DNA of 64,000 nucleotides from a candidate division CPR3 bacterium GWF2_35_18. Lineage in GTDB: Bacteria; Patescibacteriota; CPR3; GWF2-35-18. The stretch's first letter is position 1, and each line of letters starts with the position of its first letter. The translations under genes and the position numbers were made by a program. The stretch lies in assembly GCA_001771135.1 (NCBI GenBank), contig MESW01000002.1:69315-133314 (forward strand). The letters run 5' to 3'. The notes below the pieces were generated by a model that searched no databases, had not been told where the DNA came from, and saw only the letters and a program-made list of their open reading frames with translations. This document shows, piece by piece, positions 123 through 36,545 of the stretch.

Positions 123-1346
123 TTGTTTATGAGGATTTTGCAGATCAACAAATTCTTTTATCCCAAAGGGGGATCGGAAACTTATTATTTCTCTCTATGT
201 AATCTCTTAGAGAAACATAAACACGATGTGGTTCACTTTTCCATGCAGGACAATAAGAATGAAAACTCTCCGTACAAAGATTATTTTGTTTCCCATCTTA
301 ATATTACCAAGCCACAAGTTAATCTAAGCTCAATTGGGCAGATTTCTCGTTTAATTTGGTCAAATGAAGCTCAAAAAAAGCTAGAACAATTACTTACTAA
401 GGAAAAAATTGATATTGCGCATCTTCACAATATCGATCGTCATCTTACGCCATCAATCATTCCAGTCTTAAAGAAACACAAAATTCCGGTTGTAATGACA
501 TTACATGATTATAAAATTATCTGCCCCAATTCCTTACTTTTTGCAAATGGCGAAATTTGTGAAAGATGTAAAGGAAGAAAGTTTTATAGTCCATTTCCCC
601 AAAAATGTATCAAACAGTCTCGTTCTATATCATTGATTGGATCGTTTGAAGCCTATTACCATCTTTGGAGGAAGGTTTGGAAGAAAGTTGATCTTTTTAT
701 CTCGCCAAGCCAGTTTTTAAAGCAAAAAATGCAGGAATTTGGTGTTAGTCAAGAAAAAATTACTTATTTACCTCTTTTTCTTGAGGGAAAAGCAAAAAAG
801 ATTACTAAATCAACATCAAAAGGGTATTTCCTCTATTTTGGACGTTTAAGCCCGGAAAAAGGGGTAAAAACTTTAATGGAGGTATTTTCCAAGCTGCCCC
901 AAAAAACTTTAAAAATTGCCGGTTCTGGACCTCAAGAAGAGGAATTAAAAATGATTGCTAAGGATTCAAAAAACATTGAGTTTTTAGGTTTTCAAGATAA
1001 AAAAGCCATAAAAAGATTATTAACTGGCGCTAAAGGAGTAATTATTTCTTCGATCTGGTTTGAGAATGCTCCTTATACGATTATGGAGGCGATGTGGCAA
1101 GGTAAAGTGGTCTTAGGAAGTAGAGTGGGTGGAATTCCAGAACTTATTGATGATCAAAAAAGTGGTTTATTATTTAATCCTTCAAATATTCAAGACCTAA
1201 TGAGTAAAATAGAATTTCTAGAGAAATATCCCGCGAAATTAGTATCCTTTGGAAGTGAGGCTAAAAAGAGGGCAGAAGCGTTATTTAATGAAGAGGATCA
1301 TTACCAAAGATTAATTCAGATCTATCAAAAAGTAAGTTCTACTTAA
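123..1346 (+). CDS. Glycosyltransferase, GT4 family (GT-B fold); convergent with the minus-strand glycan operon
   Basis: 407-aa ORF. C-terminal GT1/GT4 donor-binding region (..FGRLSPEKG.., EFLGF, E..GIP..E) is typical of group-1 glycosyltransferases. Confidence 0.8.
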   Translation: MFMRILQINKFFYPKGGSETYYFSLCNLLEKHKHDVVHFSMQDNKNENSPYKDYFVSHLNITKPQVNLSSIGQISRLIWSNEAQKKLEQLLTKEKIDIAHLHNIDRHLTPSIIPVLKKHKIPVVMTLHDYKIICPNSLLFANGEICERCKGRKFYSPFPQKCIKQSRSISLIGSFEAYYHLWRKVWKKVDLFISPSQFLKQKMQEFGVSQEKITYLPLFLEGKAKKITKSTSKGYFLYFGRLSPEKGVKTLMEVFSKLPQKTLKIAGSGPQEEELKMIAKDSKNIEFLGFQDKKAIKRLLTGAKGVIISSIWFENAPYTIMEAMWQGKVVLGSRVGGIPELIDDQKSGLLFNPSNIQDLMSKIEFLEKYPAKLVSFGSEAKKRAEALFNEEDHYQRLIQIYQKVSST

Positions 1347-1584
1347 TTTCTTTTACGCTAATAGACTGTGAAGGGCAAAACTGCTGCGTTTCTTTGAGGA
1401 TTGAATAATCTTCATCGTCTACTTCAGTAGTTAGTTCGTACACTTTAGTTTTTTTATTTAGACTGCCACCAATTAGTTGTGATTTGGTGTCATCTCCCAT
1501 TTGCCAATATTTTGTTGTTAGAGTGGCACAAGTTCCAGTACCGATACAAGTTTCATGGTTGAAGGTAACTTTTACTTTTTTCAT
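1339..1584 (-). CDS. Small single-cluster ferredoxin-like protein (Pyrococcus-type), probable electron donor for the adjacent radical SAM enzyme
   Basis: 81 aa. Motif ETCIGTGTC...FCP, compared with the classical CIGCGTC...CP of the ferredoxin at 30806. The second Cys is replaced by Thr, as Asp replaces it in P. furiosus Fd. Lies 10 nt downstream of the rSAM gene on the same strand. Confidence 0.55.
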   Translation of the reverse strand: MKKVKVTFNHETCIGTGTCATLTTKYWQMGDDTKSQLIGGSLNKKTKVYELTTEVDDEDYSILKETQQFCPSQSISVKEIK

Positions 1585-1594
1585 AAGATACTCC

Positions 1595-2608
1595 TTATTT
1601 TAGTACTTTTTGTCCCAAGTGTACCTTGAGTTTATTTTTTATTGCCCAAAGTAAAACATTCCATTTATTTGCTTCAAAAGAGCCGCGTAGGGTACAGATC
1701 ATCCATGCCTCATAAGGATTATTTTTACAGGTGGTTTGTCTGGCTTTCTCAGCTTCCTGCGAATTGACGATATCGTTGATATTTTGGTTTTTAATATTAC
1801 CAATTTCATGATTAACATAATCGGCCGGATAAACTTGTCCTTTAGGGGATACAAATACAGAGTCTTTTCCTGAGCCTTCCGGTAAAACTCTTTCGTTATA
1901 GCGGAAAAATCTCCAGGCACCATAGTCAAAATAGGCTCTTGCCCAACGTTTTACAGAGAAAGATTTAAGCTCTTTATCAATAAGATATTCAAGTTGAGAG
2001 CGGAGATTATCAAAATTTTTGATTTTATTGTCGGTTTTTTTGAAGAAGATTTCCGAGTTTTGAGCGAGAGCTAGAGAAAGCTCAATTTTCAAATCGCGGG
2101 TTAAGTTATAAATTCTTTCTGCTTCTCCAGGGTTTTCATCCAGAATCGTGTGTCCAATACCCAGATTCTTGACGCCAATTTCTTGTAATGCCTTGATAGT
2201 GGCAATACATTTATCAAAAGCGTGTGGAATTCCGCGGGTTTGTTCATGCTTTTCGTACATACCATCGATAGAAACACGGATACCAATCTGAGGATAAAAG
2301 GTTAGAATTTCTTCAACGCGGCGACTAATGAAATCAGTCAAAAAACCGTTTGTAGAGATGATTATTTGAGCCTTTGGTGAATATTTTCTGATTTGACGGA
2401 CTATTTCTACAATATCGGGTCGTAAAAAAGGTTCTCCTCCGGTAACGTTCACGTATTTTGCCGTTGAAGGAAGATTTTTTAAGTCTTGCGTAGTAAACTC
2501 TCCTTCATGATCACGCTCTTTCCAAATATTACACATGATACAGCGGGAGTTGCATTTATAGGTGATAGCTAAAACGACATCCACAACTTCATATTGTTGA
2601 TTTGACAT
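1595..2608 (-). CDS. Radical SAM enzyme (CxxxCxxC, TNG motif, C-terminal extra Cys pair; possibly SPASM/twitch-like) inside a glycan locus
   Basis: 337 aa. N-terminal YKCNSRCIMCNIW matches the radical-SAM Cx3Cx2C motif. Also has GGEP and ISTNGFL motifs and a C-terminal CKNNPYEAWMIC. Confidence 0.85.
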   Translation of the reverse strand: MSNQQYEVVDVVLAITYKCNSRCIMCNIWKERDHEGEFTTQDLKNLPSTAKYVNVTGGEPFLRPDIVEIVRQIRKYSPKAQIIISTNGFLTDFISRRVEEILTFYPQIGIRVSIDGMYEKHEQTRGIPHAFDKCIATIKALQEIGVKNLGIGHTILDENPGEAERIYNLTRDLKIELSLALAQNSEIFFKKTDNKIKNFDNLRSQLEYLIDKELKSFSVKRWARAYFDYGAWRFFRYNERVLPEGSGKDSVFVSPKGQVYPADYVNHEIGNIKNQNINDIVNSQEAEKARQTTCKNNPYEAWMICTLRGSFEANKWNVLLWAIKNKLKVHLGQKVLK

Positions 2609-2752
2609 TATTAATTTCTCCTTTCTTTTTTATACCTGAATTATTACAATTTGTAAATTACGATATTTTAATTCTGGTTATACCTAAACTTCATTTTTTT
2701 ATTCAGGAAGTTTGGTGTATCTCATGGATTGCATCTTATAGGCAATATTGTT

Positions 2753-3949
2753 TTAAATTCTATTTACAGAAAAAAGCTCAAAAGATGGTCCAAATGAATA
2801 TTCAGAAGGTTTTTTATTGTTATTGTGATAATAAATTTTGAAAGTTTTCCTGACTATTTTATCCCAATGATATTGTTTTACAATCTCTTTTTGTTTTTCT
2901 AATCCCAATTTTTTGATTTTTCTTTCATGAAAAGTTGCGTATTTTAATTTTTTCTTCAGATCAAGGACATTCTTATTTTCAAAATTAAAACTATTCTTTC
3001 CAGTTACTTCAAGGTTTGCTGGAATATCTGAAGTTAAAACCGGTATTCCATAAGAGATTGCTTCCAGCACTGTTAGAGCCATACCTTCAGATTCTGAAGG
3101 TTGGATGTATAAATAAGCATTACTGAAAAGTTCGGTTAGAATTTTCCCTGTTTGATAACCGGTAAAAACGATGTTCGCGTTACCATAAGAGAGTGCTTTC
3201 AGCTCTTGGACATAATCATCCGTAAAAGCGCTGTCACCAACAATAACTAACTTTTTATCCTTTTTAGATACTTTTGGGTATAATTTTTGATAGGCCTCAA
3301 TTAGATAATGTATTCCTTTGTGTCTAACGAGCCTTCCTACTGTGAGGAAATAGGAATTCTTTTTTAATCCAAATTTATCTAAAAATAAGGCTTTAACATC
3401 AGGTTCTGTATAGTTTATTCCATTCGGGATAAAGGTGACTTTTTTGTGATACCTTTTTTCTAAATAGTGCTGCATATTTTGTGAAACCACAATTACTTCA
3501 TGGGGAAAAGTTAGACAAGCAATTTCACCTAGCTTCAGCATTGTTCTTGCAAAAAATCCCCATTTTTGATGTTCATAGTCAGCACAATGGTAGGTTGCAA
3601 TTATTCTTGTTTTTGGCTTGAAAATTCTAGGAATAAAAGAAAGAAGTGTTGGACCAATTCCTTGGTAATGAATTACATCATAATCTTTTGTTAGTGCATG
3701 CAGAGTAGAGAATAGTACATGCGTTATGGTATCTAAATGTTTAGTTTTAACTGAGGGAATAAAAACTTGTTTTAAATTTTGATTTTTTATTTTTAATTTC
3801 TGACTTTTTTCTACATACCATTTACGACAATAAATATAAACCTCATTTTCAGGGTTTTTTGTGAGTCTTTTGCCTAGCTCTTCTACATGACGTTCAACAC
3901 CACCATAAGAAGCAGGTATTCCTTTTTGTCCAATATAAGCAATTTTCAT
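2753..3949 (-). CDS. Glycosyltransferase (DUF1972-like N-terminus + GT4 C-terminus)
   Basis: 398 aa. N-terminus MKIAYIGQKGIPASYGGVERHVEELG, C-terminus E(A)ISYGIPVL. Paralog of the next gene. Confidence 0.8.
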   Translation of the reverse strand: MKIAYIGQKGIPASYGGVERHVEELGKRLTKNPENEVYIYCRKWYVEKSQKLKIKNQNLKQVFIPSVKTKHLDTITHVLFSTLHALTKDYDVIHYQGIGPTLLSFIPRIFKPKTRIIATYHCADYEHQKWGFFARTMLKLGEIACLTFPHEVIVVSQNMQHYLEKRYHKKVTFIPNGINYTEPDVKALFLDKFGLKKNSYFLTVGRLVRHKGIHYLIEAYQKLYPKVSKKDKKLVIVGDSAFTDDYVQELKALSYGNANIVFTGYQTGKILTELFSNAYLYIQPSESEGMALTVLEAISYGIPVLTSDIPANLEVTGKNSFNFENKNVLDLKKKLKYATFHERKIKKLGLEKQKEIVKQYHWDKIVRKTFKIYYHNNNKKPSEYSFGPSFELFSVNRI

Positions 3950-4236
3950 GACTATTTTTAGGAAGGAAAAGCGAATGGACAGCCTCTTTTCCTTAATCTT
4001 CTCCTTTTATTCTTCTCTCTATTATTGATGTTTTTTAAGGTTATTATGCTTTATAATTGTCGTAACCTATAGAAAACGTTCAAGTATATCTTATAATTAG
4101 TGTGTTGTCAAACCTATAGTTATAAAATACTCCTTATGAAATAAGCTTCATTTTTTGCCATAAAATAGCTTTAGATTGCAATAGTTTGAAATTTAATTGT
4201 GAGTAATAGAAATTAGAATGCTGATATGTAGGGAAT

Positions 4237-5472
4237 TTAGAGCATATTTGTATAGTATTGCTCAGTAAGATCTGCTATTTTATCCCAATGGTGAGTTGCG
4301 AATTCTTTAGGATGTAGATTTTTGGGATTATGATGATAAAGATTTTCATAAAACTCATCAGTCTTTTCTACTATTTGATCCCAAGAATACTTCTTTCGTA
4401 CATATAGACGAGCTTTTTCTCCGGTTTCTTTAATTAATTTAGGTTTGTGTAATAAGTTCACAAGTTTCTCTTTTAAATCGTCCACATTTCCTACTTTAAA
4501 TGAAAAACCAAAATCAGAAAGCGGCTCTAGGTTTTCAGGGATGTTTGAAGCAAGTACGCAATTGCTGTAGGCCATGGCTTCCAGAACTGCAATAGGAAGA
4601 CCTTCTGCTGCTGAAGGATGAACATATAGGTAAGTATTAGAAAAAAGCTCCGCGAGAGTTTCTCCCGTTTGAAATCCTGTAAAGATGATATTGGGATCTT
4701 CCTTTGCAAGGTTCTTTAAGTAATCCTCATATTGTCCACTTCCATCTGCTTTTCCTCCGACAATGACTAGTTTTGGATTTGTTTTATTTGGTTTTGGAAA
4801 TAAGAGTTGATATGCCTTGATCAAAGTATGAATATTTTTATGTTTTACTAATCTTGCTACTGTTAAGATATATTTATCTTTTTCTAAACCCCAATCTTTA
4901 ATGTTTTTAGCTTTTTCTTTAGTGAATAGGGGAACTCCATTTGGAATATAGGTAATCTTTTTGTGGTATTTTTCTCTTACATATTCTTGAATAGTTTTAC
5001 TAACGGCTATTGTTCCATTGGGTATTTTGACGCAGACATGTTCTCCAAATTTTAAATAGCTACGGGCTAAAAAACTCCATTTTTGGTGTTCGTAATCTTT
5101 GCAATGGAATGTTGCTACAATCCGACTTTTGGTTTTTAGTAACTTAGGGATAAATAGTAGGGAAGAAGGACCAATTCCATGATAATGTATTACATCAGCC
5201 TTTCGAGTTAAAACATTCATTGTTGCCGTAAAAGTACTTGTTATCGCATCAAGGTTTTTAGTATTTATTGAAGGATTATTTAATAATTTTATCTTTTGAT
5301 ATGTTTTGGGAACTTTTTTGTTTTGAAAAACCAAGTTTTGATACCAAGGGCGGCAGTACACATAGACTTCATGTCCTTTTTTAGCAAGTCGAGAAGCTAG
5401 TTGCTCAACATGATGTTCTACGCCTCCGTAGGAAGCAGGAATTCCCTTTTGTCCAATAAAATAGATTCGCAT
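4237..5472 (-). CDS. Glycosyltransferase (DUF1972-like + GT4), tandem paralog of 2753-3949
   Basis: 411 aa. N-terminus MRIYFIGQKGIPASYGGVEHHVEQL. Collinear similarity to the previous protein throughout. Confidence 0.8.
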   Translation of the reverse strand: MRIYFIGQKGIPASYGGVEHHVEQLASRLAKKGHEVYVYCRPWYQNLVFQNKKVPKTYQKIKLLNNPSINTKNLDAITSTFTATMNVLTRKADVIHYHGIGPSSLLFIPKLLKTKSRIVATFHCKDYEHQKWSFLARSYLKFGEHVCVKIPNGTIAVSKTIQEYVREKYHKKITYIPNGVPLFTKEKAKNIKDWGLEKDKYILTVARLVKHKNIHTLIKAYQLLFPKPNKTNPKLVIVGGKADGSGQYEDYLKNLAKEDPNIIFTGFQTGETLAELFSNTYLYVHPSAAEGLPIAVLEAMAYSNCVLASNIPENLEPLSDFGFSFKVGNVDDLKEKLVNLLHKPKLIKETGEKARLYVRKKYSWDQIVEKTDEFYENLYHHNPKNLHPKEFATHHWDKIADLTEQYYTNML

Positions 5473-5492
5473 GGGATATAAATGATTACTTC

Positions 5493-6848
5493 TTAATTTT
5501 TCGTTTTGTGTTCACTGTATCGGTAATAATGACTCTTTTTATCACCATTCGGTTTTTTGTTATTGAGAATTGTCCCAATAATCTCTCCACCTACCTTTTT
5601 GATTGCTTCAACGGCCTTTTGTGCATTAGTACGAGTGGTCTTCCCGGATTCAACTACTAATATAGCTCCATCAACCATGGAAGAAATAATTGCGGCATCA
5701 GTAATTAAACCAATTGGTGGGGTGTCGAAAATAATAGTATGGAATTTAGCTTCCTTTAGTCTTTCAATTAAATGATACATTTTGGTTGAACCTAACCATT
5801 CTGCGGGATTAGGGAGAAAAGATCCAGAGGTAATTAAAGATAATCCATTTATTTGAGTTGATTCCCAAATGGTTTTAGGGAGATCATTTTTGGTTAAGAC
5901 ATCAGTTAATCCAAAGTTATTTTCAACTTTAAAAATATCATGTTGCGTAGGACGGTGTAAATCGGCATCAATTAAAATGGTTTTATAACCAGCTTGAGCC
6001 ATAATTACCGCTAGATTAGCCGTAATTTGCGACTTTCCTTCAGATGGTCCGGAAGAGGTAACAACAAATGCTTTTGTGGGTTTGTCAGGTTGTGAAAATT
6101 GTACATTAGTTCTTATTTCTCTAAAGGATTCCACAATTGGGTCATGTGGATCGGTTGTGGTTATTAAATTTCCTGCACGACGGTGGACTTCTTTGATATA
6201 AGAAACCGTTCCCAGATGAGGCAGGTTTAGATATTCTTTTATATCAAATTCATCTTTGAATGTATCATCCAAATATTCAATCAGGAAAATGATTCCAATG
6301 ATTGAAATGAAACTGAGAATAAAAGCTAAAGAGATTGAGAGTGCTTTTTTAGGGGAATCTGGTTTTTCTGATGGAAAAGCCTTTTCTACAGTTGCAATTG
6401 TATTATAACTTTGTTTATCACCTTGAAGCTTTATTACCTCTTCAGAAAATTTTTGAGCGATAGTATCAGCAATCTGTGCCGCTATTTCAGCATCTTTTGC
6501 TTTTACGGATATTGTGATAAGTTGAGTGTCTCTAACTAATTGGACGTCAACTTTTTTTAGAAGTTCTTCATAATCTGTATCAAGATTTACTTCTTTTATT
6601 ACAGACTCTAATACGGTTCTTTTAGAAATAACCTCAGCATATGTTTTTGCTAGTCTTTCGGATGTCATAATATCGTTTAGGTTAATTGTTTCGGTACTAG
6701 CAAGGTTAACCATGACAGTTGTAGAAGATTTGTAGGTAGGAGGAATCATGAAAACTAAAGCTGTTGTTGTCGCCGTAGCGAAAATCACAAATAGGACGAT
6801 GATGAATAAATATCGTTTAATGATAAAGAGGTAATTTTTAATATCCAT
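5493..6848 (-). CDS. Fused Wzc-like polysaccharide co-polymerase / bacterial tyrosine (BY) autokinase
   Basis: 451 aa. Two TM segments flank a Wzz-like periplasmic domain. Cytoplasmic Walker A VVTSSGPSEGKS, Walker A' ILIDADLHRP, DTPP, Walker B, and a C-terminal Tyr cluster (SHYYRYSEH). Confidence 0.8.
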   Translation of the reverse strand: MDIKNYLFIIKRYLFIIVLFVIFATATTTALVFMIPPTYKSSTTVMVNLASTETINLNDIMTSERLAKTYAEVISKRTVLESVIKEVNLDTDYEELLKKVDVQLVRDTQLITISVKAKDAEIAAQIADTIAQKFSEEVIKLQGDKQSYNTIATVEKAFPSEKPDSPKKALSISLAFILSFISIIGIIFLIEYLDDTFKDEFDIKEYLNLPHLGTVSYIKEVHRRAGNLITTTDPHDPIVESFREIRTNVQFSQPDKPTKAFVVTSSGPSEGKSQITANLAVIMAQAGYKTILIDADLHRPTQHDIFKVENNFGLTDVLTKNDLPKTIWESTQINGLSLITSGSFLPNPAEWLGSTKMYHLIERLKEAKFHTIIFDTPPIGLITDAAIISSMVDGAILVVESGKTTRTNAQKAVEAIKKVGGEIIGTILNNKKPNGDKKSHYYRYSEHKTKN

Positions 6849-6863
6849 GGCAGTAAAATGTTT

Positions 6864-7571
6864 TTAAAATGAACTATCATTTAAAATATTAGCACAGTTA
6901 GTTTGAGACAGCAATTGCCATTTTGTTAAGCCAATCAAAGATTTAATTTTAGACTCAACTTTGGTTAACGGATAAAAACGGTTTTGACTATTATGAGAAT
7001 CACTTCCAATTAGATCATAGTAACCATTTTTTAAGAATAATTCAGCCTGGTTTGTAATTTTTCTGTTATTTTCGATTAAAGAAACACTAGTTAATTGAAA
7101 GAGAACACCGAGTGATTTAATTTTTTTCACCATATCTAAATTGTATAAACAAGGATACCTTTCTGGATGGGCTAAAATTGGGCGAAGGTTATTTTTTAAA
7201 AGATATTCAAGCTGTGAGATTGTTTCTGTGGTTATGTCCGGATAAACATCTACAAGTAGATATCTGGAATTATTCAGGCTTTGAAATTGTTCTAATGGTT
7301 TTTGTTCAAAAATATAATCAGTTAATCTTACCTCTGATCCAGGATATACTTTAATATCCCATTTAAGTTCTTTTAGAGCATTGTTCAAGATCTTTATTTT
7401 ATCTTGAATTTCCTTTTTTGTGGGTTCCCAATAACCTTTCCAGAAGTGTGGTGTTGTAATAATATTTTTATAACCCGTTTGAACAAAAGCTTTTGCTAGA
7501 CTTAAACTTTCTGGAAAGTCTTGCGGGCCATCATCTATTTGAGGCAGTATGTGAACGTGAGTTTCAATCAT
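6864..7571 (-). CDS. CpsB/YwqE-type PHP-family protein-tyrosine phosphatase
   Basis: 235 aa. N-terminus MIETHVHILPQIDDGP..TPHF and downstream His/Asp metal ligands typical of Mn-dependent CpsB phosphatases. Confidence 0.8.
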   Translation of the reverse strand: MIETHVHILPQIDDGPQDFPESLSLAKAFVQTGYKNIITTPHFWKGYWEPTKKEIQDKIKILNNALKELKWDIKVYPGSEVRLTDYIFEQKPLEQFQSLNNSRYLLVDVYPDITTETISQLEYLLKNNLRPILAHPERYPCLYNLDMVKKIKSLGVLFQLTSVSLIENNRKITNQAELFLKNGYYDLIGSDSHNSQNRFYPLTKVESKIKSLIGLTKWQLLSQTNCANILNDSSF

Positions 7572-7587
7572 CTGGTTATAAAAATTA

Positions 7588-8268
7588 CTATTCTTCCATT
7601 TTCGCAGTTATAATCAGTCTTTTCAAGCTTGTTCCAGGAGGATAGCAGGTTTGAAGAGTGATTACCGGTTCGGCAAAATCTCTTGTTAAAGGTTCGATAT
7701 TAGTTGGATCAACAATGTCTTTACTATCAACGATATAGTTGTATCTGGTTCCTTTATAAAAGGTGACAATAGAATCTCCTTTTTCTAGTTGATGGAGTAG
7801 AGTAAAGACAGCATTGTATTTACTAATATTAAGAGGATCAACAGTAGAATGTGCAAATAGATATGCGTTTCCGATTTGCCCGGGGTATTTAGTTCCTTTT
7901 GCATGAGCGACTCCATTTTCCAGTGCTTGCCAATAACCTTCTCTAGTTGAAATATCAATATCAGGCTGAAAGTCAGTATTTAAATTGATCTTTTCGATTA
8001 TTATTCCAAATTCGGTTGATACCGGAGTTACTGACAAGGGTTTTTCTATTGGAATTTTGACAGAATTTGTTGACTCATCGGAGTTTAAATTTGATGATTC
8101 TTGATTATTACTTTTGAATAAGCGATGTAGCTGGTACTCAATTTCGGGTTTAATAATTGGGAAAAATATAAGGAAAAGATAGATAACACCACTAATTATT
8201 AAGAAGTTTGAGATATAAATAAGATATTTTCGATTTAGTTTTAGTTTTGGTTTTTTTTGTTTATTCAT
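7588..8268 (-). CDS. Sortase-family transpeptidase
   Basis: 226 aa. Has an N-terminal TM anchor, conserved His (GNAYLFAHS), catalytic TLxTC (ITLQTCYPP) and downstream Arg (KRLIITA). Confidence 0.7.
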   Translation of the reverse strand: MNKQKKPKLKLNRKYLIYISNFLIISGVIYLFLIFFPIIKPEIEYQLHRLFKSNNQESSNLNSDESTNSVKIPIEKPLSVTPVSTEFGIIIEKINLNTDFQPDIDISTREGYWQALENGVAHAKGTKYPGQIGNAYLFAHSTVDPLNISKYNAVFTLLHQLEKGDSIVTFYKGTRYNYIVDSKDIVDPTNIEPLTRDFAEPVITLQTCYPPGTSLKRLIITAKMEE

Positions 8269-8432: not shown

Positions 8433-8620
8433 CAAAAAATGAGCTAGCATTATTCTATTAATTTATGTTATACCCAAATAACTCTAAAATGGGTAATACT
8501 CAAATGTATTTGTTGTAAATCTGAGTTTTTTAATATAAATGATTTTTATAGATTAGTAGAAGAATAAAAATCAAGTGGTGCATAGCTTAAATGGGAGAGG
8601 ACTATGTTTATATTGCAAGT

Positions 8621-8660
8621 GGGTGCATAGATTAAGTGGTAGAGCACCAATCTTATATGG
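8621..8660 (+). pseudogene. Truncated 5'-half copy of tRNA-Ile(UAU) (acceptor/D-arm/anticodon arm only)
   Basis: GGGTGCATAGATTAAGTGGTAGAGCACCAATCTTATA closely matches the 5' 37 nt of the intact tRNA at 8666, then diverges. A more degenerate copy lies at about 8577-8600. Confidence 0.5.
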
Positions 8661-8665
8661 TGACT

Positions 8666-8740
8666 GGGCGCATAGCTCAGTGGTAGAGCACCAATCTTAT
8701 AAGTTGGCCGTCCGTGGTTCGAATCCACGTGCGCCCAGCC
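8666..8740 (+). tRNA. tRNA-Ile, anticodon UAU (reads AUA)
   Basis: Manual fold: acceptor GGGCGCA/TGCGCCC, D-arm GCTC-AGTGGTA-GAGC, anticodon stem CCAAT/GTTGG with loop CTTATAA (anticodon TAT), T-arm CGTGG-TTCGAAT-CCACG. Confidence 0.75.
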
Positions 8741-8767
8741 ACCATTAATTTAGAATAAATTTTAAAT

Positions 8768-8806
8768 ATAAGTTGGCCGTCCGTGGTTCGAATCCACGTG
8801 CGCCCA
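8768..8806 (+). repeat. Exact 39-nt direct repeat of the 3' half of tRNA-Ile(UAU) (anticodon stem to acceptor end); att-like remnant
   Basis: ATAAGTTGGCCGTCCGTGGTTCGAATCCACGTGCGCCCA at 8768-8806 is identical to 8699-8737. Confidence 0.7.
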
Positions 8807-8928: not shown

Positions 8929-11900
8929 ATGAAAAAATTATCTAGACATTTTTGCTTTTTACTACTTTCTTTTAGTTTATTATTCAACTCAAGCTTTTTT
9001 CAAGCCCCTAATCTTACCTATGCAATTAATCAAACTAATACTCCGGCAACCGTTGTATTAGGACAGAACGGTTTTGATGCCTGTGATAGAGCTCCTAATT
9101 ATGGAGATATGAGAAGAGGTTTTAGTACACCTATACAAACCTTGATTGTGAATAATAAATTGATGGTTTCGGATTATGCTAATAGCAGAATATTTATTTA
9201 CAATACTATACCGGATTCTTATTTAGATGTACCAGATGTTGTGATTGGACAAAATAATCTATGTAATAATCTGATAAATAAATATCAAGGTCCTACAATA
9301 GTAGCGGCAGATACTTTATATTATCCATATTATATTTATTCTGATGGGACAAAACTCTTCGTAGCCGATTATTTGAATAATCGAGTATTAATTTACAACG
9401 AGATTCCAACTTCTAATAATGCTTCGGCAGATGTTGTAATTGGGCAACCAAACATGACCAGTAATACGGCTAATAATGGTGGTCTCGGGGCAAATACACT
9501 TTATAGACCTCTAGGAGTTTATTCTGATAACACCAAACTTTATATTGCTGATACAAGTAATAATCGAGTATTAGTTTACAATGAAATTCCAACTTCTAAT
9601 AATGCTTCAGCAGATGTTGTAATTGGGCAACCAAACATGACCAGTAATACGGCTAATAATGGTGGTAGAGCTGCTAATCGTTTAAATGCTCCTTATGCTA
9701 TAACTGTTAATAATGGGAAAATCTATATAAGTGATTTAAGTAATAATCGTGTATTGATTTTTAATTCTATTCCAACTTCAAATGATGCTTCTGCAGATAT
9801 TGTTGTCGGTCAAACTAACATGACGAATGGAGCTGCAAATCAAGGCGTAGCTGTAGCTTCAAACACCTTATCTTCGCCTATTTATACTCAAATAGCGAAT
9901 AATAAATTATATATTACTGATCGTGGAAATCACCGAGTATTAGTTTATAATAGTATTCCCATTGTAAATAATACTTCCGCCGATCTAGTGATAGGGCAAC
10001 CAAATATGACTAGTAACACGGCCAATAACGGTGGAATAAGTTCACAAACCCTTAATAATCCTACTGGTTTATCAGTTACTACGAATAAAATGATCATCAC
10101 GGATTCAAGTAATCATCGATTATTAATATTTAATACTTTACCCTTAACCAATAATCCGGAAGCAGATATTGTTATTGGCCAGAAAGATTTTACGCATAAT
10201 TTATCTTATATGGGAGCTGTTAATTCACAATCTCTATCGGCCGGTTGGAATACTGCTTTTTCCGATGGACAGAGATTATATGTCGTTGATTATGCTAACA
10301 ATCGAGTATTAATTTATAACTCAATTCCTACAGATAGTAATACTCCAGCCGATGTCGTAATTGGTCAACCGGACATGACCAGTAATATTGCAAATAATGG
10401 TGGATTAAGTGCAAAATCATTGAATCATCCCGTAGAAGTTTTTGCTTATCAAAATAAACTATATATATCAGATTACTCTAATAGTAGAGTATTAATATTT
10501 AATACTATCCCTTCAACTAATTTTGCCGAAGCTGATATTGTAATAGGGCAGCCAAATATGACCAGTAATACTGCTAATAACGGCGGCCTTGGGGCAAATA
10601 CTCTTTATTATCCAGGTTCTACGTATACTAATGGAGAAAAATTAATTATCGCCGATTATAATAATCATCGAGTTTTAATATATAACACAATCCCTACCAA
10701 TAATAATGCAAGTGCTGATGTAGTAGTCGGTCAACCAAATATGACAACAAGATCAATAAATTATGGAGGTTTAAGTGCTAGCTCTCTATATTATCCATAT
10801 GTTGTATCCTCAAACGGTAGTAATTTAGTAGTTACCGATTATAGTAATAGTAGAATACTTATTTATAACTCTATTCCTACATCGAATCTAAGTAGTGCTG
10901 ATGTAGTAGTTGGTCAACCAAATATGACTAGTAATGGATGTAATAATGGTGGAATAAATGCAAATACTGTGTGTAATCCATGGTATGCTTATACAGATGG
11001 TATTAGATTATTTATTGCCGATACTGCCAACTATCGAATACTTATTTATAATTCTATACCTACAAATAACTTTACAAACGCAGATATTCTAATCGGACAA
11101 CTTGATTTTACGCATAAGGATATTAATCAGAATGGAGATGCGTCGCAATATACTTTAACTGCTCCCTATTCAGTAATTACTGATAATCATAATTTAATAG
11201 TATATGATGCAATGAATTATCGTGTACTCTTCTACCCTCTTGGCCCTCAAAACACGGGTGTTACCACAGACAGCTATAGTAATTCTCAGAACATTGATTT
11301 AACCCTCTCTGCAGATGATGCAAAAGAGATGATGATCTCTGAAGATAGTGGATTTACCGGAGTCTCATGGGAATCATTCTCCACTTCCAAAGATTTTACC
11401 TTATCTACCATAGAAGGTAGTAAGACTGTCTATGTAAAGATGAGAGATTATGCTAATTACGAAGGAGATACTTTATCTACTACACTAACCTATGACGCTA
11501 CCTCTCCCACGGGGAGTCTTACCATCAACTCTGGAGCTACCACTACTAATAGCAGGGGAGTCACACTCACTCTTTCAGCTGACGATGCTCTTTCTGGAGT
11601 AGTCTCGATGATGATTTCTGAAGATAGTGGGTTTAATGGAGCATCCTGGGAAAATTATGATACCTCTAAGGATTGGATCCTTACCTCTGGAGATGGAATT
11701 AAGACAGTCTATGCTAAGTATAAGGATGTTGCTGGGAATATTTCTGAGAGAGTCTCTGGAAACATCGAGATGGATACTAATATCCCCGAAGGAGAGATTA
11801 TTATCGTTAGTCCTACGGAGAATGCTTATGTAAACAGTGAAACAGTCACTCTGACTTTAGAAGGAACCGATGAATTAACAGAGGTGTTTGAGATGATGAT

Positions 11901-12510
11901 CTCTGAAGATCCAAACTTCATCGGAGCTTCATGGGAAACATATACAACAACCAAAGAGTGGACATTTTCTGAGGGAGATGGAATTAAGGTAATATATATA
12001 AAGTATCGTGACTCCGCTCAGAATGAAAGCTTAATATACAGCTCCAGTATCATACTAGATACAGTAACCACTATAGATCTTACTAAGCTGGGAGGTAATA
12101 CCTTTAATACAGATATAACTGATTGGGAGATAGAAGATAATAAACCTAGCTTTGAAGGAACAGGGGAGGTAGATGCAGAGGTTGTAGTTACCATCAATTC
12201 TGATTCCATAATAGGAACTTCCATTGTAGATAGTGGTGGGAATTGGATCTGTACTCCAGAAACAGAGATTCCTGTTGGAAAGCATGAGGTAACGATAACC
12301 TCTACCGATCTAGCATCTAATACCGATACTCTCTCATTCAATCTTTCCGTACTTGGAGCTACTGATACACAAGAACAAATAGAAGGACCTGAAGAGCTAC
12401 CTAATACCGGAGTACAAACAATCATTATCTTCTTCATGGTAATAGCACTATTTTGGACAGCTACAAATCTGAGAATCATTGATAAACTTAGAAGTTTTAT
12501 GAAGAGATAA
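8929..12510 (+). CDS. Large LPXTG-anchored surface protein: signal peptide, about 14 NHL-type beta-propeller repeats, 3 tandem ~115-aa Ig-like repeats, Ig-like stalk, LPNTG sortase signal
   Basis: 1193 aa. N-terminal signal peptide. Repeated N(N/H)RVL(I/V)YN..IP..N..AD(V/I)V(I/V)GQPNMTSNTANNGG units. Three MMISED..GF.G.SWE.Y.T.K.W....GDGIKTVY.KY.D repeats. C-terminal LPNTG, then a hydrophobic segment and a basic tail (RIIDKLRSFMKR). Confidence 0.85.
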   Translation: MKKLSRHFCFLLLSFSLLFNSSFFQAPNLTYAINQTNTPATVVLGQNGFDACDRAPNYGDMRRGFSTPIQTLIVNNKLMVSDYANSRIFIYNTIPDSYLDVPDVVIGQNNLCNNLINKYQGPTIVAADTLYYPYYIYSDGTKLFVADYLNNRVLIYNEIPTSNNASADVVIGQPNMTSNTANNGGLGANTLYRPLGVYSDNTKLYIADTSNNRVLVYNEIPTSNNASADVVIGQPNMTSNTANNGGRAANRLNAPYAITVNNGKIYISDLSNNRVLIFNSIPTSNDASADIVVGQTNMTNGAANQGVAVASNTLSSPIYTQIANNKLYITDRGNHRVLVYNSIPIVNNTSADLVIGQPNMTSNTANNGGISSQTLNNPTGLSVTTNKMIITDSSNHRLLIFNTLPLTNNPEADIVIGQKDFTHNLSYMGAVNSQSLSAGWNTAFSDGQRLYVVDYANNRVLIYNSIPTDSNTPADVVIGQPDMTSNIANNGGLSAKSLNHPVEVFAYQNKLYISDYSNSRVLIFNTIPSTNFAEADIVIGQPNMTSNTANNGGLGANTLYYPGSTYTNGEKLIIADYNNHRVLIYNTIPTNNNASADVVVGQPNMTTRSINYGGLSASSLYYPYVVSSNGSNLVVTDYSNSRILIYNSIPTSNLSSADVVVGQPNMTSNGCNNGGINANTVCNPWYAYTDGIRLFIADTANYRILIYNSIPTNNFTNADILIGQLDFTHKDINQNGDASQYTLTAPYSVITDNHNLIVYDAMNYRVLFYPLGPQNTGVTTDSYSNSQNIDLTLSADDAKEMMISEDSGFTGVSWESFSTSKDFTLSTIEGSKTVYVKMRDYANYEGDTLSTTLTYDATSPTGSLTINSGATTTNSRGVTLTLSADDALSGVVSMMISEDSGFNGASWENYDTSKDWILTSGDGIKTVYAKYKDVAGNISERVSGNIEMDTNIPEGEIIIVSPTENAYVNSETVTLTLEGTDELTEVFEMMISEDPNFIGASWETYTTTKEWTFSEGDGIKVIYIKYRDSAQNESLIYSSSIILDTVTTIDLTKLGGNTFNTDITDWEIEDNKPSFEGTGEVDAEVVVTINSDSIIGTSIVDSGGNWICTPETEIPVGKHEVTITSTDLASNTDTLSFNLSVLGATDTQEQIEGPEELPNTGVQTIIIFFMVIALFWTATNLRIIDKLRSFMKR
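9397..9668 (+). repeat. Near-identical intragenic tandem repeat (unit about 183 bp, 61 codons) inside the LPXTG gene
   Basis: 9397-9485 and 9580-9668 are about 97% identical at DNA level. More diverged copies with the same period occur through about 10950. Confidence 0.6.
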
Positions 12511-12524: not shown

Positions 12525-13397
12525 TTAGAGTTCTTCGAGTTTGAAGGTTTCTTTGTAAGCAGTTCTAACATGTTCTAAGTATTTTTCTGTAGTTGATAAT
12601 CTTTTGTGTCCTACGATTTTTGAGATCAAAATGAGGCTAGTTCCTTTCATGAGGTGATGGGCGATAAAGGTATGTCGAAGGTCATTTACTTTTGCGTTTT
12701 TTACTCCCGCCTTACTAAAATATCGATCGATTGCAGATCGAATATTTCTGATTAATAGCGGTTTTCCAGTTTTAGTCACAAAAAGAGTTTCTTCTTTTGT
12801 GTTTGGCCTGATTTTTAAATATTCAGATATTGATTTAATTACAGATTTATTTAAAGGAACATTACGGCCTTCGTGTCCATGAGATGGTTGAATTATTAGC
12901 TCTCCGCTATTTTTTGTTTTATCAATAATTACATCTTCTACTCGAAGATTTCTCAATTCTCCAATACGAATACCTGTTTGTAAAAGAATTTCTACAATGG
13001 CAGCTATTCTTGGATCCTCACGACAAGAGTCTCTTAAAGCTCGATATTCAATTTTTGATAGAATTCTGGGAGCTGGAGTATCAAACTTGGGATGCGATAT
13101 TAAATTTGCAGGATTGTCAGTGATATATTCATTTAGTTCAAGAAAGCGGAAAAAAGTCTTAGTGCTATTTGTCTTTCGGGAGATACTTTTAGTGGTATAA
13201 TTTTCTTTTTCAAGTTTTGCCATGAAGGCTTGAAGATCGTTTTTGTTAATATGAGTTGTTCTAGTTTTACTTAAATTTTCTAGAAATTCTATAAGTTGTT
13301 CTATATCTTTACCATATGCAAGAATAGTCGCTTGAGAGCGGTCTTTTTCCGTAAGATGTTCTACAAATTTTTTGTGAGCTTCTTTCAATTCGATCAT
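12525..13397 (-). CDS. Tyrosine site-specific recombinase, XerC/XerD family (possible integrase). Start trimmed to the internal Met of the 12525-13514 ORF.
   Basis: C-terminus LRHTFIAHHLMKGTSLILISKIVGHKRLSTTEKYLEH matches the R..H..R..Y catalytic signature. The N-terminal SAM-like core-binding domain begins MIELKEAHKKFVEHL. The first 39 codons of the ORF look non-coding and overlap the neighbouring ORF. Confidence 0.8.
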   Translation of the reverse strand: MIELKEAHKKFVEHLTEKDRSQATILAYGKDIEQLIEFLENLSKTRTTHINKNDLQAFMAKLEKENYTTKSISRKTNSTKTFFRFLELNEYITDNPANLISHPKFDTPAPRILSKIEYRALRDSCREDPRIAAIVEILLQTGIRIGELRNLRVEDVIIDKTKNSGELIIQPSHGHEGRNVPLNKSVIKSISEYLKIRPNTKEETLFVTKTGKPLLIRNIRSAIDRYFSKAGVKNAKVNDLRHTFIAHHLMKGTSLILISKIVGHKRLSTTEKYLEHVRTAYKETFKLEEL

Positions 13398-13683
13398 ATT
13401 AACAGTGAATAATAATTTAAACGACAATATATTATGATATTCTTTTAATGAAAAGAAATTAAGGTTGGATAATTGTCGAAGTCGTAATGTAGCATATCTT
13501 TTGTTTTGTGTCAAGAACTATAGGATATATAATCTTTTTATTTCTTTATTAACAAGCCATTTACATATATTTTATAAAGTTGAAAATGTTAATCAGTGGC
13601 CGAAAATAGATATCATTAAGAATGTTTTAAATTTGAAATTCTACTTTGCAATTTTTAATCTTTTAAGTATATACTTAAAAGAT

Positions 13684-16634: not shown

Positions 16635-17567
16635 ATGAACGATTCTAAGATAGTTATTTTTGACGCACATGCTTTGATACATCGAGCTTATCATGCTTTA
16701 CCACCCCTTACAACTTCGGAAGGGATTCCAATAAATGCTGTCTACGGATTTGTGAAAATAGTTTTAAATATATTAGAAACAATGTCTCCCAATTATGTTG
16801 CGGTGGCTTTTGATACAAGAACTCCTACTTTTAGACATGTGGACTACAGTGAATATAAAGCAAATCGTCCTCCTTCTCCAGATGATTTGAAAATACAATT
16901 TCCAATTGTTAAACAGATAGTTGAAGACCTTGGATTATCTTCTTTTGAAGTTGAAGGTTATGAAGCTGATGACGTTATCGGGGCTTTAGTTAATAAATTT
17001 GAAAAAAGTGTTTCCAACTCTGAAATATTTATAGTTACTGGAGATTTTGATGCTACTCAGCTTGTAAATGATCATATAAAGATTTTTACTCTTGGGAAAA
17101 GAATTGAAAATACTTCTATTTGGTCTAAAAAAGATTTGATGGAAAAATTCCAACTTTCTTATCCAAAACAGATTATCGATTATAAAGCTTTAAGAGGGGA
17201 TCCGTCGGACAATATTCCTGGCGTTAAAGGTATTGGGGAGAAGACAGCCTCAATATTATTAAAAAACTTTAAGAACCTAGAGACAATTTATGAGAATATT
17301 GATAAAGTAGAGTCAAAATATCGTCAAAAGTTAGTAGATGATAGGACAAATGCCTTTCTATCAAAGAAATTAGCGACTATTATCAGTGATGTGCCACTAT
17401 CTTTTAAAGTAGATGAATGTAAATATCATAGTTTTGATAGAGAAAAGATAGTACCTGTTTTGGAAAAATACGAATTTCGAAGTTTAATAAAAAAATTCAC
17501 GAGAAAAGATATCTCAAAAACAGTACAAAAAAAAGACGAAAATGAACAACTCTCCTTTATCGAATAA
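16635..17567 (+). CDS. 5'-3' exonuclease (FEN-like; N-terminal domain of DNA polymerase I) as a separate ORF
   Basis: 310 aa. MNDSKIVIFDAHALIHRAYHAL..., GYEADDVIG, and H3TH region (GIGEKTA). Confidence 0.85.
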   Translation: MNDSKIVIFDAHALIHRAYHALPPLTTSEGIPINAVYGFVKIVLNILETMSPNYVAVAFDTRTPTFRHVDYSEYKANRPPSPDDLKIQFPIVKQIVEDLGLSSFEVEGYEADDVIGALVNKFEKSVSNSEIFIVTGDFDATQLVNDHIKIFTLGKRIENTSIWSKKDLMEKFQLSYPKQIIDYKALRGDPSDNIPGVKGIGEKTASILLKNFKNLETIYENIDKVESKYRQKLVDDRTNAFLSKKLATIISDVPLSFKVDECKYHSFDREKIVPVLEKYEFRSLIKKFTRKDISKTVQKKDENEQLSFIE

Positions 17568-18855
17568 AAACAACAGAGAATCAGTAAGTATTTCAGACGA
17601 ATTACATCCATACAATGTTGATAATATAGATGGTCAGATACAAAACCTGTTAACAACTATGAGCAAAGTGGGATTTCTTATAGATGTTGAGGTTATAAAT
17701 AATCTAGAAGTGGAGGTTGAGGATCTTCTTAAAAAGTTATCTGTTAGGATATTTCATCATATCGGATATGATATAAACTTAAATTCGTCAAAGCAAATTG
17801 CAAAGTTATTATATGAAGATTTAGAGCTTCCGTCAGGTAAAAAGAAAAAAACCGGTTTTTCCACTGATGAAGTGACATTGAAAAAAATTAAAAAGCTACA
17901 TCCAATAATTCCCTTAATATTAGAATATAGAACGGTTTACAAATTAAAAAGTACCTACTTAGAATCATTAAGATGTCGTATTGAGGAAGATGGAAGGATT
18001 CATTCGACGTTTCTACTTGATGTGGCAAGTACTGGGAGGATAGTTAGCAGAGACCCAAATTTACAAAATATTCCGATCAGAGGTAGTTGGGGAGAAAAAA
18101 TTCGAAAAGCTTTTATCGTTCCTTGCGAGAAGATATTAATTGCGATTGATTATTCTCAAATAGATCTGCGAGTATTAACACATTTTTCTAAAGAATCAAA
18201 ATTAATAGAAGCTTTCAAGCAAAATCAAGATATTCATCTCTCAACAGCAATGGAGATTTTTAATAAAAAAGCTTCGGATATTACTGCTGATGAACGTCGA
18301 ATAGCAAAAACAGTGAATTTTGGCATTATTTATGGAATTAGTCCTCACGGACTTTCTGAGAGTTTAGAAATTAATCAAAAACAAGCTGCTTATTTTATCA
18401 AAACCTATTTAGATAAATATCCTCAGGTAAAACAGTATCTTGATCTAAGTCGACAGAATGCTTTAAAAAATGGTTATACGGAAACACTTGGTGGAGAAAA
18501 AAGATATATTCCAGAGTTAAAAAGTAAGAATCATTTTATTCGAAGTTCTGGAGAGAGAATGGCTATTAACTATCCTATTCAGGGAAGTTCCGCGGAGATA
18601 ATCAAATTGGCAATGTTAGATATTGATTGTGAATTTGTTAGACGAAAATTATCGTCTTCAAAGATGATTTTACAAATTCATGATGAATTAGTCTTTGAAG
18701 TAGAGAATGAGGAAAAAGATGCTGTAATAAAAATCGTAAAAGAAAAAATGGAAAATGTAGTAAAACTCATTATTCCGTTGAAAGTTAGTATTAAAGAAGG
18801 TGTCAATTGGGGAGAGATGACAGAAATTTTAAAATTGGAGATGGCAATAAAATGA
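17542..18855 (+). CDS. polA: DNA polymerase I polymerase domain only (no 3'-5' exonuclease domain)
   Basis: 437 aa. Family-A motifs: motif A DYSQIDLRVL, motif B RRIAKTVNFGIIYG, motif C QIHDELVFE. Overlaps the upstream exonuclease ORF by 26 nt in a different frame. Confidence 0.85.
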   Translation: MNNSPLSNKNNRESVSISDELHPYNVDNIDGQIQNLLTTMSKVGFLIDVEVINNLEVEVEDLLKKLSVRIFHHIGYDINLNSSKQIAKLLYEDLELPSGKKKKTGFSTDEVTLKKIKKLHPIIPLILEYRTVYKLKSTYLESLRCRIEEDGRIHSTFLLDVASTGRIVSRDPNLQNIPIRGSWGEKIRKAFIVPCEKILIAIDYSQIDLRVLTHFSKESKLIEAFKQNQDIHLSTAMEIFNKKASDITADERRIAKTVNFGIIYGISPHGLSESLEINQKQAAYFIKTYLDKYPQVKQYLDLSRQNALKNGYTETLGGEKRYIPELKSKNHFIRSSGERMAINYPIQGSSAEIIKLAMLDIDCEFVRRKLSSSKMILQIHDELVFEVENEEKDAVIKIVKEKMENVVKLIIPLKVSIKEGVNWGEMTEILKLEMAIK

Positions 18856-20787: not shown

Positions 20788-21075
20788 ATGCCATTATTAG
20801 ATTCGTCTTTACTAAATCCGTATGTTTTGTTTTTTGGAGGAATTGTGATGATTATTTTTGGTTTAACTATCTCTGGTATGAAACCAACCGTAATTATTGA
20901 ATTTTGGATGAGATTTTTACTATATTTTTTTAAAAATCCTAATAAATATGAAAGAGAGCAAGAAAAAAATCCTAGTTTTAGCTTTGGGGGATGGATATTT
21001 TTATTTGGTTGGTTTTTAATAATTGCCGGAATTATTAGATTTTTGGGATTGGGGGTTGAGAATGCGTTTGAATAA
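20788..21075 (+). CDS. Small hypothetical membrane protein (2 predicted TM)
   Basis: 95-aa ORF with two hydrophobic segments. Overlaps the recF start. No recognisable family. Confidence 0.35.
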   Translation: MPLLDSSLLNPYVLFFGGIVMIIFGLTISGMKPTVIIEFWMRFLLYFFKNPNKYEREQEKNPSFSFGGWIFLFGWFLIIAGIIRFLGLGVENAFE

Positions 21076-23196: not shown

Positions 23197-23209
23197 TTTA
23201 GGATATACT

Positions 23210-34573: not shown

Positions 34574-34774
34574 TACCCATGCTTCTCGTATGAGAAGTTT
34601 CTTTTTTCGTTCTTTAACATTCAAGAAGTGGTAGGAATTTAGGCGAAGTGTTGTCTAAATTCTTAGTACAAGACTTCGTCAATTTTTTTTGTAATCATTG
34701 TTAAACCAAGTAATTGGTTTAACTCGTTTACTCTTTATGATATTTCCTAAATTTATTTAGGATTTGTCATATTT

Positions 34775-36276
<1,502 letters not shown>

Positions 36277-36375
36277 TAAGGAGTATCACTCCAACTTCAC
36301 GACTGGAGTCTTTATAGGTGTATGCTACAACCATAAAGGTAGCAGTTCCTACCACTTTTTGAAAGTTAAAGATAC

Positions 36376-36406: not shown

Positions 36407-36459
36407 TTTATGATATATTCAATTCGTTTAAAAATTGGAGTTTCGCAGCTTGTTAATTT

Positions 36460-36534: not shown

Positions 36535-36545
36535 AAGATAAATAG

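Follow-up and report, generated by a model that had tools for sequence, protein, structure and literature searches.

The 64,000-nucleotide stretch of DNA analyzed here, which we call the window, comes from contig MESW01000002.1 (positions 69,315 to 133,314) of the candidate division CPR3 bacterium GWF2_35_18, a member of the Patescibacteria, and contains a group of polysaccharide genes headed by a gene for a sortase. Seven consecutive open reading frames (ORFs) on the minus strand fill positions 1339-8268. In the direction of transcription, they encode a sortase, a CpsB-type PHP phosphatase, a tyrosine autokinase in which CpsC-like and CpsD-like parts are fused (CpsC::CpsD), two glycosyltransferases of the DUF1972/GT4 type, a radical-SAM/SPASM enzyme and a small ferredoxin. 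A preliminary description of this DNA, made from the sequence alone, reported seven packed minus-strand genes with gaps of 10-290 nucleotides (nt), and the ORF coordinates agree: from the ferredoxin end to the sortase end, the gaps are 10, 144, 287, 20, 15 and 16 nt. The sortase-CpsB-kinase-GT4 core is thus tightly spaced, with 16, 15 and 20 nt between genes. The seven gene identities given in that description were all correct according to Pfam and NCBIfam profile searches, and the Pfam assignments of all seven products exceed gathering scores.

The first gene of the operon (7588-8268) encodes the sortase, a protein of 226 amino acids that scores 73.8 bits against PF04203 (cut-off, 26.6) and 52.4 bits against TIGR01076 (cut-off, 39.35). 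It has a membrane helix at its N-terminus, and its active site reads TLQTC. The catalytic residues are H140, C208 (in TLQTC) and R217, all three of which are invariant in an alignment of 18 sequences (A1). Of the 109 sequences in a larger alignment (A3), all have C208 and R217, and at least 90% have H140. An AlphaFold2 model (pLDDT, 88.2; pTM, 0.80) consists of a helix at residues 13-52 followed by a beta-barrel, and the top 50 matches listed when this model was compared with the PDB by using Foldseek were all sortases, with a probability of 1.0. The model and the comparison together reveal the eight-stranded beta-barrel of the sortase fold behind an N-terminal membrane anchor, so the sortase call, which had been made subject to a check of the fold, is upheld. 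We tried to assign the protein to one of classes A-F, but this failed: no class-specific NCBIfam cut-off was reached, with scores lying far below (class C, 56 against 160; class E, 49 against 160; class D, 45 against 165), and the Foldseek comparison does not separate the classes for this sortase.

The second gene (6864-7571) encodes a CpsB/CapC-type PHP tyrosine phosphatase of 235 amino acids. Its match to PF19567 (CpsB_CapC) covers the full length (residues 2-230) at 141 bits against a cut-off of 27, and the metal-binding motifs of PHP proteins are readable in the translation (HVH, which is of the form HxH, as well as TPH, AHPERY and DSH). It falls under the NCBIfam equivalog cut-off for Cps4B (104 against 400). 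The third gene (5493-6848) encodes a protein of 451 amino acids in which a CpsC-like chain-length determinant is fused to a CpsD/CapB-like tyrosine autokinase. This protein scores 199 bits against the NCBIfam model for polysaccharide tyrosine autokinases (TIGR01007; cut-off, 108), and its N-terminal half (residues 9-216) scores 119 bits against that for CpsC-type chain-length determinants (TIGR01006). Pfam recognizes a Wzz domain (42.6 bits) and a P-loop domain of the ParA/AAA_31 type. The Walker A (GKS, residues 271-273), A' (DADLHRP) and B (FDTPP) motifs are present; G271, K272, D294, D296 and D375 are invariant in a kinase alignment (A2). The C-terminal YYRY (residues 441-444) aligns with the YYAY of CapB, and a tyrosine cluster occurs in all 17 relatives aligned in A2. 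A kinase with 100% identity to that of the window is on record from candidate division CPR3 bacterium GWF2_35_18.

The preliminary description had noted a fused kinase of proteobacterial type beside a CpsB phosphatase of Firmicute type. The fusion and the CpsB identity hold, but the proteobacterial type does not. The closest PDB match of the kinase is an engineered Staphylococcus aureus CapA/CapB chimera (180 bits), which outscores Wzc of the Escherichia coli type (108 bits), and the extracellular loop is short and CpsC-like, at about 130 amino acids. We therefore rejected a proteobacterial Wzc (PCP-2a) as the identity of this 451-amino-acid protein: such a kinase has a periplasmic domain of about 400 amino acids in place of the short loop, and the score against NF008568 is 124 where the cut-off is 1068. 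Judged by these profile and alignment results, the protein is a naturally occurring fusion in which an activator of the Gram-positive CpsC/CapA type is joined to a CpsD/CapB kinase. Because the kinase is of the Gram-positive CapA/CapB type, there is no mismatch of phylum type with the CpsB phosphatase, and the module is uniformly Gram-positive-like.

The fourth gene (4237-5472), which closes the tightly packed core, encodes a GT4 glycosyltransferase of 411 amino acids with an N-terminal DUF1972 domain (Pfam Glycos_transf_1, 113.7 bits; DUF1972, 52.7 bits). Among NCBIfam models, it best matches that for the Cps2T rhamnosyltransferase, but its 113.7 bits are far short of the cut-off of 500. The next gene (2753-3949) encodes a second GT4/DUF1972 glycosyltransferase, of 398 amino acids, that is above the Pfam gathering scores for both Glycos_transf_1 and DUF1972 and shares 49% identity with the product of the fourth gene. 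The best sigma-70-like promoter match on the minus strand (4083-4111; TTGACA-17-TATACT; a consensus match only) falls in the 287 nt that separate these glycosyltransferase genes and may be an internal promoter. Sigma-70-like matches are fewer in the region than in its shuffles, and scanning the region for promoters and terminators was no more informative than scanning shuffled sequence.

The core of this operon recurs in relatives. The order sortase-(CpsB)-kinase-GT4 is kept in seven related, CPR3-like loci: four (L001, L002, L009 and L015) have sortase-CpsB-kinase-GT4, and three (L003, L008 and L010) have the same order minus CpsB. A GT4 gene like the first one of the window follows the kinase gene in all related loci. 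Across these loci, the sortase is 41-63% identical and the kinase 49-77% identical, and the gap from the sortase gene to the next gene shrinks to 3-7 nt in L008 and L009. The comparison of gene order proposed in the preliminary description thus came out in its favor, in that the sortase and kinase genes are adjacent in these relatives rather than dispersed. What lies downstream of the core varies; for example, L008 has genes for a methyltransferase, a Wzy_C protein and a GT2 glycosyltransferase instead of the radical-SAM enzyme.

The radical-SAM gene of the window (1595-2608) encodes a protein of 337 amino acids with a SPASM/twitch domain (PF04055, 69.8 bits against 29.5; PF13186, 31.1 against 21.5), in which the CxxxCxxC cluster motif reads CNSRCIMC (residues 19-26). 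We could not assign a specific function to it: its scores stay below every NCBIfam cut-off, and the closest PDB relative, the cytosylglucuronate decarboxylase BlsE, a sugar-nucleoside enzyme, gave a weak match of only 36 bits. The protein is probably a sugar-modifying accessory enzyme. The gene for a single-cluster ferredoxin of 81 amino acids with three cysteines (1339-1584; Pfam Fer4_15, 32 bits) begins 10 nt past it. The radical-SAM gene is not seen after the glycosyltransferase genes within contigs L001 and L008. On a separate contig from the same sample as L002 (L095), a 69%-identical radical-SAM gene adjoins GT4, GT1 and Wzy_C genes, and in a Falkowbacteria genome (L096), an orthologue lies within a Wzy_C/glycosyltransferase locus; the ferredoxin gene is missing from both. 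On these grounds, we rejected the radical-SAM enzyme and the ferredoxin as core components. We conclude from the gene contexts that the radical-SAM enzyme is a recurrent but optional glycan-locus enzyme that represents accessory cargo, and that the ferredoxin appears confined to the window's own species. This radical-SAM/SPASM family is widespread in Patescibacteria (959 database matches, with E-values up to 1e-10), and it lies inside a Wzy_C/glycosyltransferase locus in three of three contexts inspected (window, 1595-2608; L095, 1166-2176; L096, 8001-8990). An anti-phage defense system was also considered and rejected, as PADLOC gave only a weak, generic likeness of the radical-SAM core to viperins, and Pfam GT4-conflict matches were weaker than those to generic GT4 families.

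Additional glycan genes lie to the left of the operon. The 3' end of a convergent GT4 glycosyltransferase gene on the plus strand (123-1346; 407 amino acids; Pfam) extends 8 nt into the ferredoxin gene, and this GT4 gene is part of the same glycan locus. In the left flank as represented by L011, this gene is followed by a variable stretch of about 4 kilobases (kb) and then by genes for a GT1 glycosyltransferase and a Wzy_C protein of 493 amino acids. The Wzy_C gene (L011, 17742-19223) is about 6 kb beyond the left edge of the window, and the GT4-GT1-Wzy_C arrangement, including the convergent GT4, is found in both L011 and L095. The only Wzy-like candidate had previously been a distant one, at position 61942. 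This distance was an artefact of the window boundary. Given a Wzy_C gene next to the locus, the protein at 61942 is not needed as a polymerase. The variable stretch (L011, 12480-16690) encodes secreted proteins of 137 and 437 amino acids with no Pfam match; its gene content differs among L011, L012 and L014, all of which have an identical radical-SAM protein, and it is missing from L095.

On the other side of the operon, two features are divergent from the sortase gene. The first is a plus-strand gene for tRNA-Ile(TAT) at 8665-8741. The second, also on the plus strand (8929-12510), encodes a surface protein of 1193 amino acids with NHL repeats, Ig-like domains and a signal peptide, which ends in LPNTG, a hydrophobic stretch and a K/R-rich tail. 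This NHL protein is the sole protein in the window with a sorting signal of this kind and is likely to be a substrate of the sortase, to judge from that signal. It had been suggested that the operon forms one transcription unit directly upstream of this giant LPXTG protein, but that picture has to be abandoned. The NHL gene is not in the transcription unit of the sortase, because it lies on the opposite strand in divergent orientation, and the 660 nt that separate it from the sortase gene contain the tRNA gene. Among the related loci, only L001 and L003 include enough upstream sequence to reveal whether the NHL gene is absent, and in both, tRNA-Ile alone separates XerC from the sortase. No tblastn match to the NHL protein was found in any locus of another species. 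Since only the tRNA lies between XerC and the sortase in L003, the NHL gene represents an insertion that is particular to the species of the window. We therefore rejected it both as an operon member and as a conserved partner. Glycosylation of the NHL protein by the locus is pure conjecture.

The tRNA-Ile(TAT) gene, in contrast to the NHL gene, is kept just upstream of the sortase gene in L001 (4448-4523), L003 (1675-1746) and L015 (1128-1201). The anticodon of this conserved tRNA is TAT (UAU); most bacteria decode AUA with a lysidine-modified CAU tRNA. In the window, the tRNA gene is flanked by two degenerate tandem copies of its 5' half (8577-8621 and 8622-8666), and an exact 40-nt copy of its 3' half lies 29 nt downstream of it (8767-8806). 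These half-copies look like the scar of integration or excision at a tRNA gene. A gene for a XerC-like recombinase lies at 12525-13514.

Based on the predicted proteins and their order, we regard the locus as a Gram-positive-type, tyrosine-kinase-regulated operon for a surface polysaccharide (capsule or cell-wall polymer) that is headed by the cell's sortase gene. From what is known of the families, the two GT4 enzymes of the operon, together with the convergent GT4 and the GT1 encoded outside the window, would assemble the repeat unit of the glycan, carried on a lipid, and the Wzy_C protein would polymerize or ligate that unit. The CpsC::CpsD kinase, cycling with the CpsB phosphatase, would set the amount and chain length of the glycan. 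The radical-SAM enzyme and ferredoxin would modify a sugar as a strain-specific extra.

The place of a sortase in such an operon finds an experimental precedent in Mediterraneibacter gnavus, a gut Firmicute and so far the only bacterium in which the pairing has been put to a genetic test. In this organism, srtB4 lies in a cluster with an LCP (LytR_cpsA_psr) enzyme and a kinase/phosphatase pair; when the gene is deleted, the capsule is no longer presented, and complementation brings presentation back (PMC13121745), and the study leaves the mechanism open (Nat Commun 2026, PMC13121745). The cluster (RGna_12030-12060) resembles that of the window in that a sortase gene is found inside a polysaccharide locus with a bacterial tyrosine kinase (BY-kinase), a phosphatase and glycosyltransferases, with genes for candidate sorting-signal proteins nearby (PMC13121745). 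It differs in several ways. SrtB4 is a class-B-like paralogue, one of eight sortases in its genome, whereas the sortase of the window is its lineage's general type and fits no class. The M. gnavus cluster has an LCP ligase, and none was found in the window's cluster. The window kinase, unlike that of M. gnavus, is fused to a CpsC-like activator, and its host belongs to the Patescibacteria. By analogy with M. gnavus, the sortase would be co-expressed with the glycan genes since display of the polymer needs a sortase-anchored LPXTG protein, most plausibly the NHL protein in this species. If polymer display depends on such a protein, two wall-decorating activities would therefore be made together. 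Functional coupling of sortase and polysaccharide is plausible on this analogy, and we lean somewhat toward the view that the genes are expressed together because the glycan layer truly depends on a protein anchored by the sortase, as in M. gnavus.

Several observations weigh against this interpretation. As noted above, L001 and L003 have neither an LPXTG nor an NHL gene upstream of the sortase. The 287-nt gap with its promoter-like site may divide the seven genes into two units. The predicted pathway is incomplete: our search for glycan genes covered about 72 kb, comprising the ORFs of the window and 8.5 kb beyond its left edge (the latter by precomputed Pfam labels of called genes), and within this range, we found no initiating phosphoglycosyltransferase (Bac_transf or Glycos_transf_4) and no Wzx flippase (Polysacc_synt), which extends the earlier remark that the operon itself has neither. 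No LCP ligase (LytR_cpsA_psr) was found in this range either. Linkage of the sortase to the kinase is also rare on a broader scale. Among 80 loci with orthologous sortases from species-representative genomes of Patescibacteria (37-49% identity), 79 have no kinase or CpsB gene within 10 kb, and only L015 is linked. In a neighbor-joining tree of sortases, which was not bootstrapped, the kinase-linked sortases form one clade, except for L010, which is on a long branch; the unlinked sortases L019, L049 and L077 fall within this clade. Finally, the window shares the order XerC-DivIC-tRNA-Met-FtsH with L001 and L003, and XerC and FtsH are also found at that site in L019. Conservation alone is therefore no proof of a functional link, because unrelated genes are kept over the same divergence.

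These last observations suit an explanation by coincidental synteny, in which a horizontally acquired cpsB-cpsCD-glycosyltransferase cassette landed directly downstream of the lineage's single housekeeping sortase gene, which was already located with its substrates beside XerC-DivIC-FtsH, so that read-through joins genes whose functions are independent. In L019, the sortase gene occupies the same XerC-FtsH site without a kinase and is next to a gene for a DUF11 protein with an LPATG signal. Moreover, after the eight CPR3-like kinases, the next-closest kinases are only 31-45% identical and, where a source is named, come from Chloroflexi/Anaerolineae, which fits lateral acquisition. We take this explanation seriously but consider it doubtful on balance. 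The M. gnavus genetics demonstrate a functional dependence (PMC13121745). Also, the junction between the sortase gene and its neighbor stays at 3-16 nt even where CpsB is lost or the genes farther downstream are exchanged.

The remaining argument against coincidence comes from unrelated loci. A scan of metagenome contigs with the kinase alignment yielded 80 unrelated loci, with kinases 28-41% identical, and in two of these (L111 and L124), a Pfam-confirmed sortase gene is directly beside the kinase gene. The chance of two direct adjacencies among 80 loci is about 0.01 by a rough Poisson estimate that assumes three sortases per 3000 genes. Both hosts have a high content of guanine plus cytosine (GC), about 65%, and their sortases are 23-40% identical to the window sortase over partial alignments. 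L111 has the order Wzy_C, sortase, kinase, LPG_synthase_TM (flippase-like), GT2/Bac_transf, DUF11 protein and TMEM260-like O-mannosyltransferase; its DUF11 protein has no classical LPXTG signal. L124 has the order DSP-type tyrosine phosphatase, kinase, sortase and Ig-like protein. Its phosphatase is non-homologous to CpsB, and its Ig-like protein has at its end an LPATG motif, followed by a hydrophobic segment and a tail rich in arginine. Three additional high-GC loci have small LPXTG proteins near the kinase gene, with no sortase visible: L141 (9017-14138) has the order LMW-PTP, kinase, DUF4012 and LPATG protein; in L110 (225-2323), the kinase gene is followed immediately by that of an LPDTG protein, at the contig end; and L121 (14483-16051) has two LPVTG proteins 3-4 kb downstream. 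The two direct adjacencies are evidence that the sortase-kinase pairing arose repeatedly. For the CPR3-like loci, the simplest history would be that a general sortase, already located beside substrates near XerC, gained a laterally transferred cpsB-cpsCD-glycosyltransferase cassette directly downstream.

The operon can also be compared with known systems of polysaccharide assembly. In streptococcal cpsABCD operons, cpsA, which encodes an LCP ligase, is the first gene. As in these streptococcal operons and the staphylococcal capABC, the window has a CpsB PHP phosphatase, a CpsC-like activator and a CpsD/CapB kinase with C-terminal tyrosines, followed by glycosyltransferases. Unlike in cpsABCD, CpsC and CpsD are one polypeptide, the sortase comes first instead of the LCP ligase CpsA, and the roughly 72 kb searched yielded neither a CpsE-type initiating transferase nor a Wzx flippase. 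Sub-threshold matches of the kinase and the glycosyltransferases to models associated with the exosortase XrtA (TIGR03018, 139 against 230.65; TIGR03088, 72-79 against 409; TIGR03007, also below cut-off) call to mind PEP-CTERM/exosortase (XrtA/EpsH) systems, which are linked to exopolysaccharide loci in Gram-negative bacteria. In these systems too, a protein-sorting transpeptidase is genetically linked to a locus that encodes a chain-length determinant, a tyrosine autokinase and GT4 enzymes. The likeness is an analogy only: exosortases are unrelated to sortases in sequence and fold, and no exosortase or PEP-CTERM protein is present at the locus.

The position of the sortase gene in the slot of cpsA, together with the absence of any LCP gene from the window, raises the further idea of a glycoprotein anchor, which is a more pointed version of the glycan-linked anchoring suggested in the preliminary description. 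Here, a lipid-carried glycan whose size is set by the kinase would be moved en bloc onto an LPXTG protein by a Wzy_C-type ligase or another transferase, and the sortase would attach that protein to peptidoglycan, thereby taking over the role in wall attachment that the LCP enzyme CpsA has in streptococcal cps operons. The Wzy_C family includes the WaaL and PglL/PilO ligases, and genes of this family are found alongside the locus in L011, L008, L095 and L111. L111 encodes both its DUF11 surface protein and the TMEM260-like protein O-mannosyltransferase, and in L124, the LPATG protein gene comes right after the sortase gene. A worked example of coupling between the wall anchoring of a surface protein and glycan assembly is provided by Actinomyces oris, in which LcpA glycosylates the cell-wall-anchored surface protein GspA (PMC6381275). 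In that pathway, it is an LCP enzyme that transfers the glycan, and no BY-kinase module is known to take part, whereas the window has a kinase module and no LCP was found. We consider a glycoprotein anchor quite improbable. Glycosylation of these LPXTG proteins is a prediction from gene context, a Wzy_C domain cannot tell a polymerase from a ligase, and the DUF11 protein of L111 lacks a classical LPXTG signal. Moreover, L001 and L003 have no LPXTG gene upstream of the sortase, and an LCP gene could sit elsewhere in the genome, as our view is limited to about 72 kb.

A broader speculation, which we also hold to be unlikely, is that several monoderm lineages (CPR3, the two uncultured high-GC lineages and M. 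gnavus) have BY-kinase-controlled surface polysaccharides that are carried or organized by a dedicated sortase-anchored LPXTG protein, rather than being fixed directly to peptidoglycan by an LCP enzyme. In the CPR3 organism, this part would fall to the NHL protein or to some LPXTG protein encoded elsewhere. If this were true, the sortase would be the wall-attachment step of a capsule pathway.

Some additional observations concern the wider surroundings. In three unlinked loci of the Microgenomates group (L004, L006 and L007), the sortase gene lies in the order RecF-like SMC_N ATPase, sortase, PEGA, MreB, GT4 and WecG/TagA-like transferase, and in many further orthologous sortase loci (L016-L094, by tblastn only), a GT4 gene is found about 3 kb downstream of the sortase gene. 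In the Microgenomates block too, the sortase adjoins cell-wall glycopolymer genes. The RecF-like gene of the window (21023-22099) instead precedes a Fic/DOC gene and a gene for an ATP-dependent DNA ligase with three ligase domains (22153-24997), in the slot occupied by the sortase in other Microgenomates. The rest of the 64-kb window consists of housekeeping functions and an rRNA operon. This rRNA operon (34773-43444) is interrupted: 16S rRNA, tRNA-Cys and tRNA-Ile(GAT) are followed by about 3.1 kb of protein-coding ORFs and then by tRNA-Ala, 23S rRNA and 5S rRNA. The intervening ORFs encode a NUDIX protein (36661-37140), proteins with no known identity (37708-39255) and an RDD family protein (39245-39796). 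DNA polymerase I (16635-18855) is encoded by two overlapping ORFs in different frames, one for the 5'-3' exonuclease (16635-17567) and one for the polymerase domain (17542-18855). In the relatives L004 and L007, it is a single protein of 747-785 amino acids, and the split may be a frameshift, a sequencing error or genuine.

Sortases and capsule-regulating tyrosine kinases are treated in textbooks as separate branches of Gram-positive envelope assembly. Our literature searches turned up no report that connects a sortase with a BY-kinase in Patescibacteria. The pairing is not categorically new, because the experimental precedent in M. gnavus exists. What is new is that it occurs and is conserved in Patescibacteria, that the kinase is a CpsC::CpsD fusion, that the cluster lacks an LCP gene, and that there is evidence of repeated origin. 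Since the pairing occurs in a CPR3 clade and in two unrelated high-GC lineages, the link would seem to be general rather than a quirk of one species. Patescibacteria have tiny genomes, and CPR3 is without a cultured member. The loci described here provide natural, compact variants, with a fused kinase, no LCP gene in the cluster and one sortase, in which to study the role of a protein transpeptidase in building a polysaccharide coat. For the Patescibacteria themselves, they point to a regulated surface glycan that is likely to be relevant to attachment to hosts and exposure to phages.

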